This document shows, in pieces, positions 8,767 through 61,329 of a stretch of DNA of 64,000 bases (within the stretch, counting starts at the first letter, position 1; each line of letters starts with the position of its first letter). The position numbers and the translations under genes are program-made. Origin of the DNA: a virus; the IMG/VR virus record IMGVR_UViG_3300028844_008248, one strand, 5' to 3'. The notes beneath the pieces are model-generated. The model saw nothing but the letters and a program-made list of their open reading frames with translations. It was not told the origin of the DNA and ran no database searches.

Positions 8767-8800
8767 TGCACATTTAGAACATTTCTATAATATTTGAAAT

Positions 8801-8845
8801 GAAAGTTAAGTGTTACTTAGCACCCGTAACTTTCACTTTTTAAAC
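8801..8845. terminator. Conserved hairpin GAAAGTTA-N18-TAACTTTC followed by T-run (member 1 of 3 of a recurring hairpin)
   Basis: gaaagttaagtgttacttagcacccgtaactttcactttttaaac; same arm sequence recurs at 18013-18036 and 19549-19578. Confidence 0.4.
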
Positions 8846-8865
8846 AACTGTGTTATGTGTGCTAC

Positions 8866-8985
8866 TAGTTACTACTAGTAACCACTAGTTAGTATAAATA
8901 CCACACTATATAACACTACTATTGTAGAGTTATATTAGTAGTTATTTCTAGTAGTTACTAGTAGTAACTAGTAGTTAGATGTAGG
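8866..8985. repeat. Two clusters of 10-bp ACTAGT-containing direct/inverted repeats (ctactagtta x3 ; ctagtagtta x3) flanking a TATAAATA box (8893-8900, plus strand)
   Basis: Read directly: tactagttactactagtaaccactagttagTATAAATAcc … ttctagtagttactagtagtaactagtagttag. Confidence 0.7.
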
Positions 8986-9033: not shown

Positions 9034-9534
9034 ATGAAAAAGAAAAAGAGCAAATATCATCAAGGAAAATTTACTCCAAAGAATCCAGATAAGTATATGG
9101 GAGATGTTAATAATATTATATATAGGTCTGGTTGGGAATTGCGGTATATGAGATTTTTAGACTCTTCTAGCTCTATTAAGAAATGGTGTTCGGAACCATT
9201 CTATATTCCATACATATCCGAAGTGGATGACTGTAAGCACAGATACTTCCCAGATTTCTTGGTATACACAAGAGAGGGGCATGGATATATAGTGGAAGTA
9301 AAGCCGTTGAGAGAGACTAAACCACCACGTAAGACATCAAGGAAGGATACTTACCTAGAAGAACGAAAGCGAAGGTATAGAGAAACGAAACGTTGGGTTA
9401 CATGGAGAACAAATAAATCTAAGTGGGGAGCGGCTGAAGCATTTTGTCAGAGGAATGGATTGCAGTTTAAATTGGTAACAGAGAAATCATTGGGCATCGA
9501 TGGGAAAACATATAAAAAAAAGAAAAGACTTTAA
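9034..9534 (+). CDS. PD-(D/E)xK superfamily nuclease (TnsA/Hjc-like endonuclease fold), 166 aa
   Basis: Motif …RYFPDFLVYTREGHGYIVEVKP… (PD…EVK); only plus-strand gene in a minus-strand region, preceded by late promoter box and followed by hairpin terminator. Confidence 0.5.
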   Translation: MKKKKSKYHQGKFTPKNPDKYMGDVNNIIYRSGWELRYMRFLDSSSSIKKWCSEPFYIPYISEVDDCKHRYFPDFLVYTREGHGYIVEVKPLRETKPPRKTSRKDTYLEERKRRYRETKRWVTWRTNKSKWGAAEAFCQRNGLQFKLVTEKSLGIDGKTYKKKKRL

Positions 9535-13800: not shown

Positions 13801-14005
13801 ACTTATTTAATAATTCTCGTGCCTCAGACTCCAAAGCAAACGCTTCCTCAATAGATGTTCGACATGCCCACGAAAGCCTCAAAGACATCCGAGCCAACTG
13901 ATCACCAAGACTATCAGGCTCAGAACAATCCATGTAAATTAGTCGGGTTTTGATTTGTGATTGAAGAACAGCTAAATCAAGTATTTTATCACGAGTAGTT
14001 TTCAT
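13766..14005 (-). CDS. Hypothetical early protein, 79 aa
   Basis: ORF. Confidence 0.35.
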   Translation of the reverse strand: MKTTRDKILDLAVLQSQIKTRLIYMDCSEPDSLGDQLARMSLRLSWACRTSIEEAFALESEARELLNKCEKKRRLRYDF

Positions 14006-17033: not shown

Positions 17034-17425
17034 TATTTTTGATCTCCTTCCATTCTGAAATTAACTTGATCAGCAACAAACTTCTCATAACCAGCAACAG
17101 AAACTTCGTATCCACCATCACGCAACCATTTTTTGATACTATCAGCAACATAACCTTTGGATTTAAGAATGCCGTGAGGAGATTCACCAGCATCATATCG
17201 CTCGAAGTATTCAGCCGGAGAAAAGTTTTTGATTAGGAAAGAAAGAAATCCGGGTTTGTTGGACCTCATGTGTTTGAACCGGGCAACAAATTTGTCACCG
17301 TACATCAGATATCCACCATGATAGTTGAAGTTTTTTCGGTCAAATTTCATCGTGTTTTGATCTCCTGTAGTTGAATCGTTATCAATCATGTTCAACAAGT
17401 ATACCAGAGTTTTATTCGATGTCAA
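17033..17425 (-). CDS. Hypothetical early protein (true start probably 17350 or 17389; ORF-track N-terminus lies inside the promoter)
   Basis: Promoter -10 at 17399-17404 lies within ORF-track N-terminus; AGGAGA SD before ATG at 17350. Confidence 0.45.
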   Translation of the reverse strand: MTSNKTLVYLLNMIDNDSTTGDQNTMKFDRKNFNYHGGYLMYGDKFVARFKHMRSNKPGFLSFLIKNFSPAEYFERYDAGESPHGILKSKGYVADSIKKWLRDGGYEVSVAGYEKFVADQVNFRMEGDQK

Positions 17426-17426
17426 G
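17399..17426 (-). promoter_or_regulatory. Early promoter TTGACA-N16-TATACT (minus)
   Basis: agtataccagagttttattcgatgtcaa. Confidence 0.65.
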
Positions 17427-17624
17427 GTCTAAATCAATGCCCTGCATAATTTCTTTTTTCGTTCCACCAGAATATTTTGATCGCATATCAGAATGCTCTC
17501 TACTGGTCCATGCATTCCAGTATTTGGGTGGAACATTGTGATGACGATATATCGTAACGCCACGATAGAGATAGATGCCTGATTCGATTTTTTTAGCACT
17601 GTTTTTGTTTTTCATCATCGTCAT
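17412..17624 (-). CDS. Hypothetical early protein, 70 aa
   Basis: ORF; promoter at 17662-17689. Confidence 0.4.
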   Translation of the reverse strand: MTMMKNKNSAKKIESGIYLYRGVTIYRHHNVPPKYWNAWTSREHSDMRSKYSGGTKKEIMQGIDLDLDIE

Positions 17625-17661
17625 CTCTCATCATCCTCATCAAAAGAATTAATATGTACAT

Positions 17662-17689
17662 AGAATACCAGAATCCTAGAAGATGTCAA
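17662..17689 (-). promoter_or_regulatory. Early promoter TTGACA-N16-TATTCT (minus)
   Basis: agaataccagaatcctagaagatgtcaa. Confidence 0.5.
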
Positions 17690-17800
17690 GCAGAATCGGA
17701 GAATAATTCGGGGTTCAAAAAGTGCTACATTTTGTAGCATATTTATTTAATGGTCCAGAATAGTCGAAGTGGGTAAATGTGCTTGTTGATAGTGCATAGA

Positions 17801-17843
17801 GGAAATGACAGGAAATGACAGGTAATGACAGGTAATGACAGGA
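17801..17843. repeat. Tandem direct repeat 4 x 10 bp (aatgacagg[a/t])
   Basis: ggaaatgacaggaaatgacaggtaatgacaggtaatgacagg. Confidence 0.85.
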
Positions 17844-17897
17844 ATAGTCGAAGTTACCTATCCTTCCTCTGCAAAACCCGACTATTCTCAGAACTAC

Positions 17898-17950
17898 GCC
17901 CAAAATAACTCATAGCCCAAAATAACTCATAGCCCAAAATAACTCATCAC
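17898..17950. repeat. Tandem direct repeat 3 x 17 bp (cccaaaataactcatag)
   Basis: cccaaaataactcatagcccaaaataactcatagcccaaaataactcatcac. Confidence 0.85.
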
Positions 17951-18037
17951 GCCTAATTTAGCATATATATACCTGCTTTATCATAGATAGTCGGGTTTGT
18001 CAAGCTTTAAATGAAAGTTACGGGTGATAACTTTCAC

Positions 18038-18066
18038 TTGACACTGAACAACTCCTGTGATATACT
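18038..18066 (+). promoter_or_regulatory. Strong sigma70-type promoter on plus strand TTGACA-N17-TATACT with no downstream ORF (candidate sRNA promoter)
   Basis: cTTGACActgaacaactcctgtgaTATACT; downstream 200 nt lacks ORF, contains 15-bp inverted repeat. Confidence 0.5.
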
Positions 18067-18208
18067 GTAGGTTTATAGTTATGCATATACCAGAAACTGT
18101 GCGCTCCATTCCCATTATATATTATATATTCGAAGTTGTCAAGTGGAAATATTCGTGTAACATTAACTGTTAATGTAAATCTATGCTACGACTTAAACCT
18201 ACAGTATA
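18062..18208 (+). ncRNA. Candidate structured small RNA bounded by perfect 15-bp inverted repeat (tatactgtaggttta / taaacctacagtata)
   Basis: Transcription start predicted about 18073 from upstream promoter; IR arms 18062-18076 and 18194-18208; no ORF. Confidence 0.3.
18114..18142 (-). promoter_or_regulatory. Convergent sigma70-type promoter on minus strand TTGACA-N17-TATAAT facing the plus-strand promoter about 50 bp away
   Basis: minus strand cacTTGACAacttcgaatatataataTATAATggg. Confidence 0.5.
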
Positions 18209-18454
18209 GCACATAAAAACCATGATGTAAAGAAAATTCCGGCCTATTCTATGTGGCTTCCCTGTATGTGGTTGACCAACTCCGTAAATAACCGCACTTT
18301 GGCTCGATCAGTTTACGTGTGCTTATCTTACACTACATAGAATAGTCGGGTTTTTGGACCGCTATCAGAGACTCGAACTCTGAATTGTAACCCGGATTTA
18401 CAGAGCGTATCGATGCAAATCGTGTTATAGCGGATATTTTCACTATATTTTTAT

Positions 18455-18483
18455 ATACTATCACACATATTCGGGTTTGTCAA
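18455..18483 (-). promoter_or_regulatory. Promoter TTGACA-N17-TAGTAT (minus) firing into ORF-free region
   Basis: minus strand tcTTGACAaacccgaatatgtgtgaTAGTAT. Confidence 0.4.
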
Positions 18484-18567
18484 GAGGGTTTTTGTAAAAA
18501 CCGAATATCGTTATTCCTGCACTCTCAGCCAATATCTCCCTAGCTGAAAGTTGGTAAAAAGTCCTTA

Positions 18568-18759
18568 TCAATCCATCAAGAATAGTACTCCAGCCAAAAC
18601 ATAACCAAGCTGTCCGGTGGCTATTCCATACACAACGAGAATCCATCCTAATATATCCAAAGTCATGATTTCCTCTCTCGGTTCACCACAGAGCAAATAA
18701 GCAACGAGAATACATCCTAATATATCCCAAATCATGGTTCGAAGCTCAGATGCCCACAA
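18568..18759 (-). CDS. Small membrane protein with internal duplication, 63 aa
   Basis: Two about 30-bp direct repeats (atcctaatatatcc[c]aaa[g]tcatg) encode repeated MIWDILG / MTLDILGWIL. Confidence 0.35.
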   Translation of the reverse strand: MWASELRTMIWDILGCILVAYLLCGEPREEIMTLDILGWILVVYGIATGQLGYVLAGVLFLMD

Positions 18760-18938
18760 TTCGGGTCAAGATCACATACTTTCAATGATGTTGGTGGACA
18801 TCGGCGCAAAATATAATGTAGAGATGTTTCTTTTATTGGTATCCAGATGTCCGTACCTTTCACCTCTACATATACTTCTCTGAGATTAATAATAACAGGT
18901 AAGATTTCATCACCAACATATATAGTCGAGTTATCCAT
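18732..18938 (-). CDS. Hypothetical protein, 68 aa
   Basis: ORF. Confidence 0.3.
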   Translation of the reverse strand: MDNSTIYVGDEILPVIINLREVYVEVKGTDIWIPIKETSLHYILRRCPPTSLKVCDLDPNCGHLSFEP

Positions 18939-19127
18939 AATGTTACCACACCTCCATAGTTACAGGTCCAGTTGGCAATTTGTTCCACTGGTGCGCTACA
19001 TCAGGCCAGAGCATCAATGGCTCACCATAGTGTAAGACGCTCTCAAACCAAAAATTAGCTAGGTTAATCTGGTGTGCCAGCAAAGTAGTCGGGTTCATCT
19101 TATTAACTCCGTTTTAAAGCTCGTTTA

Positions 19128-19289
19128 TTATAGTTCAACTACGACTATGTTTGGGGAATATCCGTTCAACATCTCGTGGGCTTCGTCTTTACCGAAGTAA
19201 CCAACTAGCTTCGTACCGGACCAATGTTCAGTAACTCCAGCTTCCAACCAAGTCACTTCGTATGTTTTTCTCGGTTTTACTTTCATCAT
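19128..19289 (-). CDS. Small early protein (start trimmed to MMKVKPRK… after GGAG; ORF-track N-terminus overlaps promoter)
   Basis: Early promoter at 19328-19355; SD GGAG 7 nt before ATG at 19289. Confidence 0.45.
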   Translation of the reverse strand: MMKVKPRKTYEVTWLEAGVTEHWSGTKLVGYFGKDEAHEMLNGYSPNIVVVEL

Positions 19290-19327
19290 TCGATTAACTC
19301 CTATAAGCAATCGTTTATCATGTAACC

Positions 19328-19355
19328 AGTATACCAGAGTTTTGTCTGGTGTCAA
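19328..19355 (-). promoter_or_regulatory. Early promoter TTGACA-N16-TATACT (minus)
   Basis: agtataccagagttttgtctggtgtcaa. Confidence 0.6.
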
Positions 19356-19908
19356 GAGAAATATGTATATAAGTTTGAGCATAGATTTACATTAACAGTG
19401 AGTGTAATAACATCAGAAGATAGCTCTTGACAGATGTATAATATATGTGCTATACTGAGAGTGGAAACTGATTCTTAGATTTACAGTGAATGTTCTGGTA
19501 TATAAACATGTCACGTAAAGTACTATAAGAGATTAGTCGGGTTTTGTTTTGAAGTGAAAGTTAAGTCGTGCTAACTTTCATTTGGAGTAGACAATTCAGG
19601 ATTGAGTCGGACCTGTCATGTTGGGCTTGACTTGGAGAGAGAGCTTGCAAAGCCTAGTCGGGCTACTAGAGCCAGCATGGACACAGAGCCTAGTCGGGCT
19701 TTGCCCAAACCGGAAAAAAAACATTGGGCGAAAGTAGTCGAAGTTAGAAGCTATTTTGTAACAACTTTTTTATTAGTGTTTTATTCTGTAGGTTTTTCGG
19801 TGGGAAACTTCGAATATCTCTCTATCTACCAAATCAAATTCAACTATTCTAAAACCGGAAAATCAAAATTTTTTTCGAGCTATATTTTTAGGTTCTGAGA
19901 ACTTTACT

Positions 19909-20460
19909 TCAGTTGTTGTCTCGTAGTAGTATATCATCTTCTATCATTAATTCTATACATCTTGGACAAGTTATCCATTGAGCCATTTGTCTATACGAGA
20001 TATATGGATATTCCTCTCCATATAGTTTTCCATCTATGGTATAACACATAGAAACCAAGTCATACTTACCATCCACAGTAGTCCATGTCTTGATTCCTTT
20101 ATGATTATATTCTGGTTCTTTCACCTCTTCGTCTGTAGTATAATGATCAAAGGCTTTATTAAAATGTTCCTGTCGCAACGAGTCCAGTCTACCAGCAATA
20201 TCATTAAGTATATCGGATATTAATAAGTCATTATTATTAAGAAATATTTCAGGTATGGTAACATCTACCAGTTCACCCGAACATTTATCATATATGAATT
20301 TGATATTATGAGTCACATGGTTTTGGATATTATATAATTCATCAAACTTATCTTTTGACATGTTTTCTAATTCTTCGTTAGTGTAGTCGTCTAAAGTTTT
20401 TTCCATGATATTATGCTCCATATTTTTCACCTGTTTCAATTGTTTCCAGTGCGAGTTCAT
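19909..20460 (-). CDS. Hypothetical protein, 183 aa
   Basis: ORF. Confidence 0.5.
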   Translation of the reverse strand: MNSHWKQLKQVKNMEHNIMEKTLDDYTNEELENMSKDKFDELYNIQNHVTHNIKFIYDKCSGELVDVTIPEIFLNNNDLLISDILNDIAGRLDSLRQEHFNKAFDHYTTDEEVKEPEYNHKGIKTWTTVDGKYDLVSMCYTIDGKLYGEEYPYISYRQMAQWITCPRCIELMIEDDILLRDNN

Positions 20461-42551: not shown

Positions 42552-42588
42552 GTTTTTATCTCCTGAATCATTGTTTATCATGTAACCA

Positions 42589-42616
42589 GTATACCAGAGT
42601 TTTATTCGATGTCAAG
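42589..42616 (-). promoter_or_regulatory. Early promoter TTGACA-N16-TATACT (minus)
   Basis: agtataccagagttttattcgatgtcaa. Confidence 0.65.
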
Positions 42617-43205: not shown

Positions 43206-43234
43206 CAGTATAACAGAGTTTCGGAGTATGTCAA
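43206..43234 (-). promoter_or_regulatory. Early promoter TTGACA-N17-TATACT (minus)
   Basis: agtataacagagtttcggagtatgtcaa. Confidence 0.55.
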
Positions 43235-43530
43235 TGTTTATTTTCGGGTATGTAAAAGAAGGTGGGACGTTCTGTTTCTAGGTGTCCCAAGCCCAAGGCA
43301 ACTTTACGCCGCCAATGCTAGATCGTAATCATTTGCATTTATAATCTGATAGATTTTTTACTAGGCCAACTATCATCCTAGTGCTGTCTTAAAGATTATT
43401 ATATCCAATCGAATCCAGTTCGCCCCCATGAAAAAAGTGTATTGCACTTCTCGTTTTGATTATTATCCAATTTCGACATGTCAGAATAATAAACTAGATG
43501 GGGTTTCAACCATGAACAATACACTCTTAT

Positions 43531-43560
43531 GGTGGAGGCGGTGGGTATCGAACCCACGTC
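43531..43560 (-). other. Orphan tRNA 3' fragment (T-arm + acceptor 3' strand + CCA) with no matching 5' half
   Basis: minus strand …CGTGGGTTCGATACCCACCGCCTCCACCA; no complementary GGAGGCG within 150 nt. Confidence 0.45.
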
Positions 43561-43595
43561 TTAAATACTTTCGTCAATAAGATTATACAGCAATA

Positions 43596-43982
43596 TTATA
43601 CTATGTTGTACATACCATCCAATTTTGTAATACCATCTTGAAGATATGTTGGTATTGATTTATGTTCTTTTGTATTATCAAATACTGATAAAAATTTATT
43701 ACCATCTACTCCGGGGTTTGTACAAATCATTGTGAATTCAGGACCACGATAAACCCACTTAGGTAAAAATCGTTGTGTGTATATTCCATCTTGATACCAC
43801 TGACCCAACTCCACAACATCTTTTTTAGATTCCCAATATATTACATGATCTTTTTCAGTCGGATCAATATACCAAAAATAATTTAGTTTTGACTCCATAG
43901 GAATAACAACCCAATCTTCTTGATATCCGAAATATTCATAAATTTCATTTTGTAATTTAAAATATTCACCCAATAATTTCAT
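43596..43982 (-). CDS. Hypothetical protein, 128 aa
   Basis: ORF. Confidence 0.45.
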   Translation of the reverse strand: MKLLGEYFKLQNEIYEYFGYQEDWVVIPMESKLNYFWYIDPTEKDHVIYWESKKDVVELGQWYQDGIYTQRFLPKWVYRGPEFTMICTNPGVDGNKFLSVFDNTKEHKSIPTYLQDGITKLDGMYNIV

Positions 43983-47148: not shown

Positions 47149-47463
47149 CTATAAAAATTTAGTAGATATCATTACCCGTTGGTTTCTTCCACTATTTCCG
47201 GGTTTTTTTGTCCCGGTGTATGATATCCACCCCTTGTCAGATAATGCTTTATACCTTGCAGTTACGGACGAATAAGATAGATTAGGAAATGATTCTCGAA
47301 CCTGATCAGAGATACATCCAGAACTTCCATGATATTCAATGACCGTATAAACCTCTTTCTCTAAATTATTGAGATTTTTTAAGGATTCGGCGGCTTCTTT
47401 ACTTGTCTCCGGTCCATCTATTCGATGTAGTGTATGAATTGGAGTATTATTCATTTTTAACAT
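47149..47463 (-). CDS. Winged-helix (MarR/ArsR-like) transcription regulator, 104 aa
   Basis: wHTH pattern …EKEVYTVIEYHGSSGCISDQVRESFPNLSYSSVTARYKALSDKGWI…. Confidence 0.4.
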   Translation of the reverse strand: MLKMNNTPIHTLHRIDGPETSKEAAESLKNLNNLEKEVYTVIEYHGSSGCISDQVRESFPNLSYSSVTARYKALSDKGWISYTGTKKPGNSGRNQRVMISTKFL

Positions 47464-61186: not shown

Positions 61187-61211
61187 ATTTAATGTAATTC
61201 ATTTAATTTTT

Positions 61212-61329
61212 TGGTACTCCGGGCAGGAATCGAACCTACACATCACGCCATTATATCATTGAGATATAATAGTTATGGATAAGGTCTCTAATATAATCTT
61301 GTTGCCTCTTCCATTTGGGCTACCGGAGT
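61212..61329 (-). tRNA. tRNA-like gene with about 40-nt internal insertion (perfect 7-bp acceptor ACTCCGG/CCGGAGT, canonical T-arm GGTTCGATTCC, CCA) spanning 118 nt
   Basis: 3' part reads as canonical tRNA; complementary 5' acceptor strand found 118 nt upstream; internal AT-rich hairpin TTATATC…GATATAA. Confidence 0.35.

Follow-up and report, generated by a model that had tools for sequence, protein, structure and literature searches.

We analysed a non-coding tract of about 2 kb within a 64,000-nucleotide stretch of viral DNA (IMG/VR record IMGVR_UViG_3300028844_008248; the whole stretch is referred to here as the window), in which a short sequence, the TAGTCG box, is clustered. The phage is a T4-like myovirus with AT-rich DNA (~33% GC) whose closest cultured relatives are the pelagimyophages and the Melnitz methylophages, with a gp6 identity of only ~38%. 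Encoded in the window are the baseplate proteins gp6, gp25, gp5 and gp53, as well as gp2, RtcB, NrdJ, a permuted transfer-messenger RNA (tmRNA) and six tRNAs, and nearly all of its genes are on the minus strand. The tract is placed between the baseplate/tail genes and gp2 in a hyperplastic region rich in ORFans. No credible open reading frame (ORF) of at least 90 aa was found from 17425 to 19909, and a small minus-strand operon lies at 18461–19289. At least eight strong sigma70-like promoters are predicted in the tract, on both strands.

The original prediction, which was made from the letters of this DNA, had counted about 11 TAGTCG(G/A) boxes in 2 kb at a density far above that expected by chance, and both statements were borne out by our analyses. 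Exact matches to TAGTCGR number 20 in the window, compared with 7.2 ± 2.8 in shuffled sequences, and 11 of the 20 fall within 17761–19741, where ten are on the plus strand (a 10:1 bias). At the rate found outside the tract, the Poisson probability of at least 11 TAGTCG in 2 kb is ~1e-11. The longer sequence TAGTCGGG occurs seven times in 17700–19850 and once in the other 62 kb, representing a 135-fold enrichment, and TAGTCGGG or TAGTCGAAG is ~50 times denser in the 2-kb non-coding tract than elsewhere. The box consensus falls into three flavours, AGAATAGTCGGGTTTT, AGCCTAGTCGGGCT (the AGCC type) and GAATAGTCGAAGTT. A position matrix constructed from nine non-coding copies produced strong hits that were confined to the tract, except for two inside ORFs at 13940 and 48257. 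The motif is not equally dense throughout the genome, as a second locus of the phage, 21.8 kb in length, of which ~9.4 kb lies left of the window (L007), has box counts at chance level only, and the box cluster is unique within ~75 kb of the phage. The positions predicted for the copies were essentially right, with the exceptions that the one at 18470–18480 is a variant without the core, TATTCGGGTTT, and that the copy at 18923 had been overlooked. Not all of the scattered boxes are non-coding, since those at 18923 and 19086 fall within the first codons of small minus-strand ORFs (Table 1).

A relative of the phage was retrieved by a protein search with the 146-aa left neighbour of the tract (68% identical), and the tract was compared with it, a step that the original prediction had proposed. 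This relative, the 7.6-kb JGI contig L024, is syntenic over the entire tract, where its non-coding identity to the window is ~50% (312/620 and 347/681 alignment columns). Despite that divergence, five box copies are exact: TAGTCGR has five matches in L024 versus 0.78 expected, and all five are at homologous positions. The longest near-perfect non-coding island shared by the two phages is the one containing the box/anti-box pair on the left side of the tract, and a second island is TGCAAAGCCTAGTCGGGCT, which is identical at 19/19 positions; the island sequence GACAGGAATAGTCGAAGTTACCTATCCTTCCTC is a candidate query for finding further relatives. The AGCC-type box AGCCTAGTCGGGCT is present in three copies in L024 and in two copies plus one decayed copy in the window, and the spacers between the copies have diverged, such that their spacing is 36 nt in the window and 34 and 32 nt in L024. 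These spacings are not codon-phased, for which reason a coding repeat (SLVGL/PSRA) was rejected as an explanation of the boxes; the ORFs spanning the AGCC array are not on record as genes. Among the other copies, 17761, 17988 and 19735 correspond to near-boxes in L024 in an otherwise conserved context, and 18343 and 19534 fall in segments missing from L024. In addition, boundaries of synteny or indels between the two phages abut boxes at 17837, 17885 and 18354.

Because key copies are letter-perfect in the related phage, the boxes are a genuine signal rather than a chance occurrence. The comparison indicates that the core copies are under purifying selection and that copy number is evolving. 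Our results therefore support the view that the boxes are a functional recognition or processing signal. The original prediction had named two options, a DNA-binding site or a processing signal; a functional signal of some kind is upheld by the unique cluster and the five conserved copies, and the two options were not separated by our evidence.

Table 1. Boxes, box variants and associated features in the window, with their counterparts in the relative L024 where these were found.
Feature	Position	Strand	Remarks
Exact TAGTCGR matches in the tract (start positions)	17761, 17845, 17878(-), 17988, 18343, 18923, 19086, 19534, 19655, 19691, 19735		
Bidirectional terminator-like hairpin	17722–17740		Closes the minus-strand non-coding unit with the left box cluster
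Box type A, TAGTCGAAGTG	17761–17771	+	L024 has the near-box TTTGTCCAAG; context conserved
10-bp tandem repeat, 5 copies	17800–17849		Abuts the conserved island; sequence not kept in L024
Conserved island with box/anti-box pair	17837–17885		48/49 identical in L024
Left-pair box, TAGTCGAAGTT	17845	+	
Left-pair anti-box, AAACCCGACTA	17874–17884	-	Box on the minus strand; pair centres 33 bp apart
17-bp tandem repeat, 3 copies	17898–17948		2 copies in the ENA strain; in L024 this place holds an unrelated 16-bp unit, repeated ~3 times
Box type G	17988–17998	+	Directly abuts minus-strand TTGACA at 17999–18004; L024 has TATTCGAATTT
Variant TATTCGAAGTT	18127–18137	+	In the spacer of a consensus minus-strand promoter, 18142–18114
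Minus-strand promoter	18203–18231	-	Kept as L024 2087–2115; opens the non-coding unit holding the left box cluster
Box type G	18343–18353	+	Immediately follows the CCA at the 3' end of the tRNA-like gene (minus strand)
tRNA-like RNA gene	18355–18433	-	Box on one side, box variant on the other; L024 1223–1285
Variant TATTCGGGTTT, no TAGTCG core	18468–18478	+	In the spacer of minus-strand promoter 18483–18455, upstream of the tRNA-like gene
TAGTCGAGTTA	18923–18933	+	Within the start of a 68-aa minus-strand ORF; probably incidental
TAGTCGGGTTC	19086–19096	+	Within the start of a conserved 51-aa minus-strand ORF; missing from the L024 homologue
Plus-strand promoter, TTGACA-18-TATACT	19427–19456	+	Upstream of the right box cluster; -10 weak in L024 (TAGGAA)
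Box type G	19534–19544	+	In a window-specific segment that L024 lacks; an ENA contig ends at 19544
Segment missing between contigs of other assemblies, 116 bp	19545–19660		From +11 of box 19534 to +6 of box 19655
AGCC-type box AGCCTAGTCGGGCT, copy 1	19651–19664	+	GCAA on its 5' side can pair with TTGC on the 3' side of copy 2
AGCC-type box AGCCTAGTCGGGCT, copy 2	19687–19700	+	Three copies of this type in L024, 34 and 32 nt apart
Box type A	19735–19745	+	L024 has TAGTGGAAGTT in a 41/45 conserved island; inverted variant partner at 19806–19817
CTTGACATCGAATAAAACTCTGGTATACT cassettes	~11003, 11386, 14434, 16118, 17394, 17654, 19310, 42570, 42907, 43192	-	

Searches for further relatives were negative. 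None was found by protein-based scans of IMG/VR with both flanking genes or by megablast and distant blastn searches of GenBank phages, and DNA-pattern scans of IMG/VR, JGI contigs and GTDB genomes returned only chance or high-GC hits (L001, L009–L022, L025–L028). P0004 was rejected as a relative since it is part of an unrelated 45-kb phage. Homologue searches left the 183-aa and 70-aa neighbour proteins as orphans. As a separate observation, a 15-nt exact copy of ATTAGTCGGGTTTTG, identical to 19532–19546, is located at 13938–13952 within a minus-strand ORF of 68 aa for which L024 has no homologue, and this copy is either a chance match or an additional box.

The conserved box copies always occur in pairs that are able to base-pair. 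The left pair is an inverted repeat, GAATAGTCGAAGTT ... AACCCGACTATTC, with the potential to form a hairpin of 11–13 bp. In minus-strand RNA the pair 17845/17878 would comprise 11 bp including two G.U pairs, and in plus-strand RNA the latter positions are A.C mismatches. This pair is contained in a unit that extends from the conserved minus-strand promoter 18231–18203 to the terminator-like hairpin at 17722–17740, whose sequence is conserved in L024, yet which the terminator scan picked up in the window only. Adjacent copies of the right array have complementary flanks in both phages, 5' in one copy and 3' in the copy that follows it, even though the sequences involved are different (GCAA/TTGC in the window, TTGGGCTTG/CAAGCCCAA in L024, in a comparison of two genomes whose copies are not strictly orthologous). 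Pairing of these flanks yields a long hairpin with two boxes opposite one another, and in L024 this hairpin has z-scores of -3.3 and -2.9 on the two strands. Most of the window-specific boxes also have an inverted partner within ~30–110 nt (I6, I8, I20 and I21), and the copy at 18343, where synteny with L024 breaks, has a degenerate inverted copy at 18234–18254 as its pairing partner. Overall, the box pairs, whether box/anti-box or quasi-palindromic, can form helices of 11–14 bp and lie in units bounded by promoters and terminator-like hairpins.

A second arrangement links the boxes to promoters. Four promoter-like elements, namely P-18004, P-18142, P-18483 and the weak conserved P+17835, contain a box or variant at ~-26 to -19. 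The original statement that two copies adjoin minus-strand -35 elements was correct, as the box at 17988 and the variants at 18127 and 18468 all lie beside TTGACA in the spacer. The type-A box is one base apart from the spacer of class-B promoters (AGTCGAAGTT vs ATTCGAAGTT). Box 19534 is positioned inside an inverted duplicate of the promoter/hairpin module at 18000–18200 and nevertheless retains its plus-strand orientation; because of this, orientation seems to matter beyond the local transcript.

Three further assemblies of this phage, whose identity to the window is 99.75%, break at two boxes with single-base precision. A MEGAHIT k141 left contig (L005) stops at 19544, and the MEGAHIT k141 right contig (L003) and two Logan k31 contigs (L002, L004) begin at 19661. 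The break positions, 19544/19545 and 19660/19661, are at +11 of box 19534 and +6 of box 19655, respectively. An intragenomic repeat was rejected as the cause since a repeat scan found no exact repeat of ≥16 nt involving 19500–19700; a Logan break at 19342, by contrast, is explained by a 31-nt repeat. We estimate from box coverage that the chance of both segment edges falling in boxes is ~0.002. The simplest reading is that co-occurring strains differ in one segment whose two edges lie in boxes. The samples hold at least two strains, and a strain variant is the simpler account because Logan contigs also break at ordinary strain single-nucleotide polymorphisms (SNPs), as in L006, which begins right after one (14081/14082). 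No contigs with the alternative allele were retrieved via the small ORFs. Deletion, inversion or conservative site-specific recombination between 19534 and 19655 was rejected, as the ends predicted for these events (19541 and 19655, or 19666) are unlike those at 19544 and 19661, and a direct terminal repeat was rejected since the two ends leave a gap and no overlap. The ends would be matched exactly by a pair of double-strand cuts, each with a 5' stagger of 5 nt, in a geometry that was fitted post hoc.

Our tentative interpretation is that the boxes may form the cores of cis-acting hairpins within early non-coding transcripts and double as junctions for recombination, similar to promoter-early stem-loops (PeSLs). 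The boxes would be the invariant cores of lineage-specific short cis-elements that punctuate the early non-coding units of the hyperplastic region. Their action would be mainly in transcripts, as hairpins that are recognised or processed, and these could set RNA ends or stability, or bind a factor reading the CGACUA:UAGUCG core. Since the same 8–16 nt recur many times, the boxes may also serve as junctions at which modules are swapped. In addition, the boxes and promoters probably share ancestry, because the near-identical TATTCGRRGTT is the spacer of one promoter class.

Several observations weigh against a role as RNA hairpins. The AGCC region of the window is not unusually stable (z ~ -0.4), and the AGCC hairpins of L024 fold better on the plus strand (-59 vs -43 kcal/mol). 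The evidence on strand is in conflict, as the left pair favours minus-strand RNA and the plus-strand promoter in L024 is weak. The core is fully paired in the left pair, yet in the right array it would form an internal loop or a hexaloop; the structural context is not uniform, and therefore plain recognition of the sequence in duplex DNA fits equally well. True covariation is thin because there are two genomes only and the box stems themselves are invariant. Moreover, three copies or variants occupy promoter spacers. Finally, no partner protein was identified, and the small proteins of the module have no Pfam hit; their only PHROG match, a weak one for a single protein, is to a family whose function is unknown.

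A possibility that we consider rather doubtful is that the boxes are duplex-DNA operators at which a phage or host protein would read TA(G/T)TCGRR and control the dense early promoters. With similar doubt, such a protein could be imagined to occupy the class-B promoter spacers and, in addition, auxiliary high-affinity sites at both module borders. A duplex reader would be indifferent to the varying structural context, and an invariant core with variable flanks resembles the site matrix of a transcription factor. The shared position in the four promoter-like elements, the retention of the variant TATTCGAATTT beside TTGACA in L024, and arrays whose 32–36 bp spacing is ~3 helical turns are also in keeping with operators. 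However, operators leave unexplained both the complementarity of the AGCC 5' and 3' flanks through phage-specific sequences and the conservation of the 19-nt spacer of the box pair, and the 10:1 strand bias is unexpected for simple operators. The box at 17988, the sole true TAGTCG box in a promoter, is not kept as a box in L024, and the conserved copies are not in strong promoters. A DNA-binding domain was not detected in the module proteins, and the winged helix-turn-helix (wHTH) candidate at 47149–47463 that had been put forward as a reader gave only weak sub-threshold hits in domain searches. A host nucleoid protein, also proposed at the outset, is not indicated. If the boxes were instead functionless leftovers of duplicated class-B promoter cassettes, or of short mobile palindromes, that are now drifting, which is very improbable in our view, the single-base distance of the type-A box from the class-B spacer, the inverted duplications of promoter cassettes in the region, and the absence or degeneration in L024 of four window copies would follow readily. 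Relics would not be expected to retain the spacer while the -35 and -10 hexamers are lost, nor to include five letter-perfect copies although divergence has randomised their surroundings, and box 19534 still has the plus-strand orientation inside its inverted duplicate.

The tract might be a unique replication origin or a pac/cos-like site, with boxes comparable to iterons or R-sites for an initiator or small terminase, although we regard this as unlikely, and equally so the associated cutting or nicking at fixed offsets in particular boxes. The uniqueness of the cluster in ~75 kb of the phage, the direct repetition and strand bias of the boxes, the AT-rich stretches and many promoters of the tract, and adjacent tandem repeats that change in sequence while keeping position and number, like co-evolving iterons, would suit such a site, and the ends at 19544 and 19661 (+11 and +6) match a 5-nt 5' stagger after fill-in. 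Those ends, however, face apart across a 116-bp gap and constitute neither cohesive ends nor a terminal repeat, the same contigs cross other boxes with the same core, Logan contigs also break at ordinary strain SNPs, and the GC skew shows no turn at the site. A fixed site also conflicts with the headful packaging of T4-like phages, which proceeds without fixed ends. Circularly permuted genomes have been described (PMC4122927). It is likewise highly doubtful that a site-specific DNA enzyme uses the boxes for cleavage or crossover, cutting the top strand after position 6 and the bottom strand after position 11. Such an enzyme would leave a 5-nt 5' stagger and would make the inter-box segments exchangeable cassettes, or the two boxes real DNA ends, neither of which we think at all probable; it would explain the k141 stop at 19544, the restart at 19661 and the Logan starts at 19661 without a repeat in the window. 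The hairpin reading is the one we favour, tentatively.

PeSLs are mobile regulatory cassettes of T4-like phages that were reportedly described by Arbiol et al. in 2010. PeSL promoter-terminator cassettes occur in T4-like hyperplastic regions (Comeau et al. 2014, PMC4122927). Like these, the boxes are short conserved regulatory sequences repeated in the intergenic hyperplastic DNA of a T4-like myovirus, with early promoters and stem-loops nearby, and they coincide with indel or replacement boundaries between close relatives (17837, 17885, 18354 and the strain gap at 19545–19660). Unlike PeSLs, the TAGTCG box is 8–16 nt in length and is not itself a promoter plus terminator: a promoter with stem-loop/terminator composite was not found at the boxes, and only 17988 and two coreless variants are in promoters, most copies being without adjacent -35/-10 hexamers. 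The boxes are also strongly strand-biased and limited to one 2-kb tract rather than spread between ORFs. The window does contain a bona fide PeSL-like cassette family with the composite of promoter and stem-loop, namely the class-A, 30-nt minus-strand early promoter cassette CTTGACATCGAATAAAACTCTGGTATACT, which is found in near-identical form at ~10 places; a 31-nt exact repeat among these cassettes (19313–19343 = 42573–42603) breaks k31 assemblies. The boxes may be analogous to PeSLs as module junctions while being distinct from them, a comparison that we offer tentatively.

Other systems share fewer features with the boxes. Enterobacterial REP/BIME elements may bear a resemblance to the boxes, as short imperfect palindromes with an invariant core, clustered in non-coding transcribed DNA, that have the potential to form RNA hairpins and to be recombination or insertion hot spots. 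REPs are elements of host genomes, 35–40 nt in length, distributed genome-wide and mobilised by RAYT transposases, and the boxes do not show their length, genome-wide spread or RAYT link. The iterons and R-sites of phage and plasmid origins and of lambda cosB resemble the boxes as multiple direct short sites in a unique, AT-rich non-coding tract with promoters and with lineage-specific tandem repeats alongside. In contrast to iterons and cosB, the boxes have no nearby initiator or terminase gene, their spacing is irregular (33 bp to ~600 bp), and T4-like packaging is without a fixed site. The RNase III-type processing hairpins of T7 and T4 early regions are, like the putative box hairpins, conserved, with internal loops, and separate transcription units on polycistronic early RNAs; the box stems of 11–14 bp would be short for RNase III. 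A CRISPR array or type III antitoxin (ToxI-like) would have repeats of ≥23 nt with spacers, or perfect units of ~36 nt, beside cas or toxin genes. Both were rejected, as the boxes have a 14-nt core only, diverged spacers and 2–3 copies, and no cas or toxin gene was found adjoining the box array. Rfam covariance models, those for tRNA, Y RNA and CsrB-like RNAs among them, run on 17300–20100 gave nothing at gathering score and three chance-level hits (E = 2.7–3.9). None of the known families tested (Rfam, CRISPR, ToxI-like arrays, tRNA and strict PeSL) fits the boxes.

The tRNA-like RNA gene flanked by a box and a box variant is a conserved element in its own right. Its 7-bp acceptor stem is perfect, its T arm carries a TTCGAGT loop and its CCA is encoded, and the D and anticodon arms are aberrant; in the window it has its own promoter, 18483–18455. 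Its length is 79 nt in the window and 63 nt in L024, and compensatory double changes between the two affect 5/12 of the acceptor and T-stem pairs, with 95.8% of cells paired. The gene escaped standard ARAGORN and Rfam searches. Two possible relationships of the boxes to tRNA genes were rejected: a signal in the tRNA 3' trailer, as the six other tRNAs, the tmRNA and the tRNA-like gene of L024 have no box after them, and parts of tRNA genes, since ARAGORN and Rfam give only a degenerate tRNA-like element here. The DNA at ~61190–61260 (minus), directly upstream of tRNA-Leu(tag), ends in GTGTAGGTTCGATTCCTGCCCGGAGTACCA, which corresponds to the T arm, the 3' strand of the acceptor and CCA of a further tRNA not called by ARAGORN or Rfam. 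The phage-encoded tmRNA at 43213–43644 on the minus strand is of the permuted, two-piece beta type and has the tag ANDYDLALAA. The distantly related Melnitz methylophage has been linked with tmRNA (PMC9004378).

Repeats of several other types were observed in and around the tract. The tandem repeats that abut the conserved pair are of unrelated sequence in L024 with their position kept, and the downstream array has an approximately equal copy number. On the minus strand, the repeat at 17800–17849 reads CTGTCAT(TAC/TTC) five times with a 10-bp period, and L024 has only CCTGTCTGATCGGCTGATC there. We take CTGTCAT to be the Pho-box heptamer; the E. coli pho box is CTGTCAT-N4-CTGTCAT. A hairpin of the form AA(A/G)TGAAAGTTA-loop-TAACTTTCA(C/T)TT is present in three copies (8797–8838, 18009–18039 and 19552–19583). 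The latter two are inverted duplicates of one another, and the G.U wobble of each falls on the strand that its neighbouring class-B promoter (18142 minus, 19427 plus) would transcribe. A near-perfect palindrome of 17 bp, ACATTAAC(T/A)GTTAATGT, is found at 18160–18176 and 19389–19405, and in L024 at ~2050–2070 and ~650–670, within a conserved 28-nt island ~20–40 bp upstream of the -35 of a class-B promoter; it looks like an operator or activator site. Outside the tract, dense ACTAGT-containing repeats occupy 8860–8985 upstream of ORF 9034–9534 (+), the only plus-strand gene in its neighbourhood, whose product is TnsA-like/endonuclease-I-like (PF08722, E = 2.7e-19). That gene may be a polymorphic insertion because a Logan contig ends at 8996.

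T4-like phages acquire and lose adaptive genes in their hyperplastic regions, and the only mechanism described for this is recombination at PeSL cassettes. The TAGTCG box is far shorter than those cassettes, strand-biased, distinct from the PeSL-like cassettes of the same genome and conserved between relatives, and it marks the borders of variable modules as well as those of a polymorphism between strains. If the boxes serve in the cleavage or crossover of DNA, they would represent a new system for cassette exchange or for the formation of ends. If they are RNA hairpin signals, they would point to a level of early non-coding RNA organisation that has gone unannotated, and with it a conserved tRNA-like RNA, in a lineage of environmental phages that has no cultured member.

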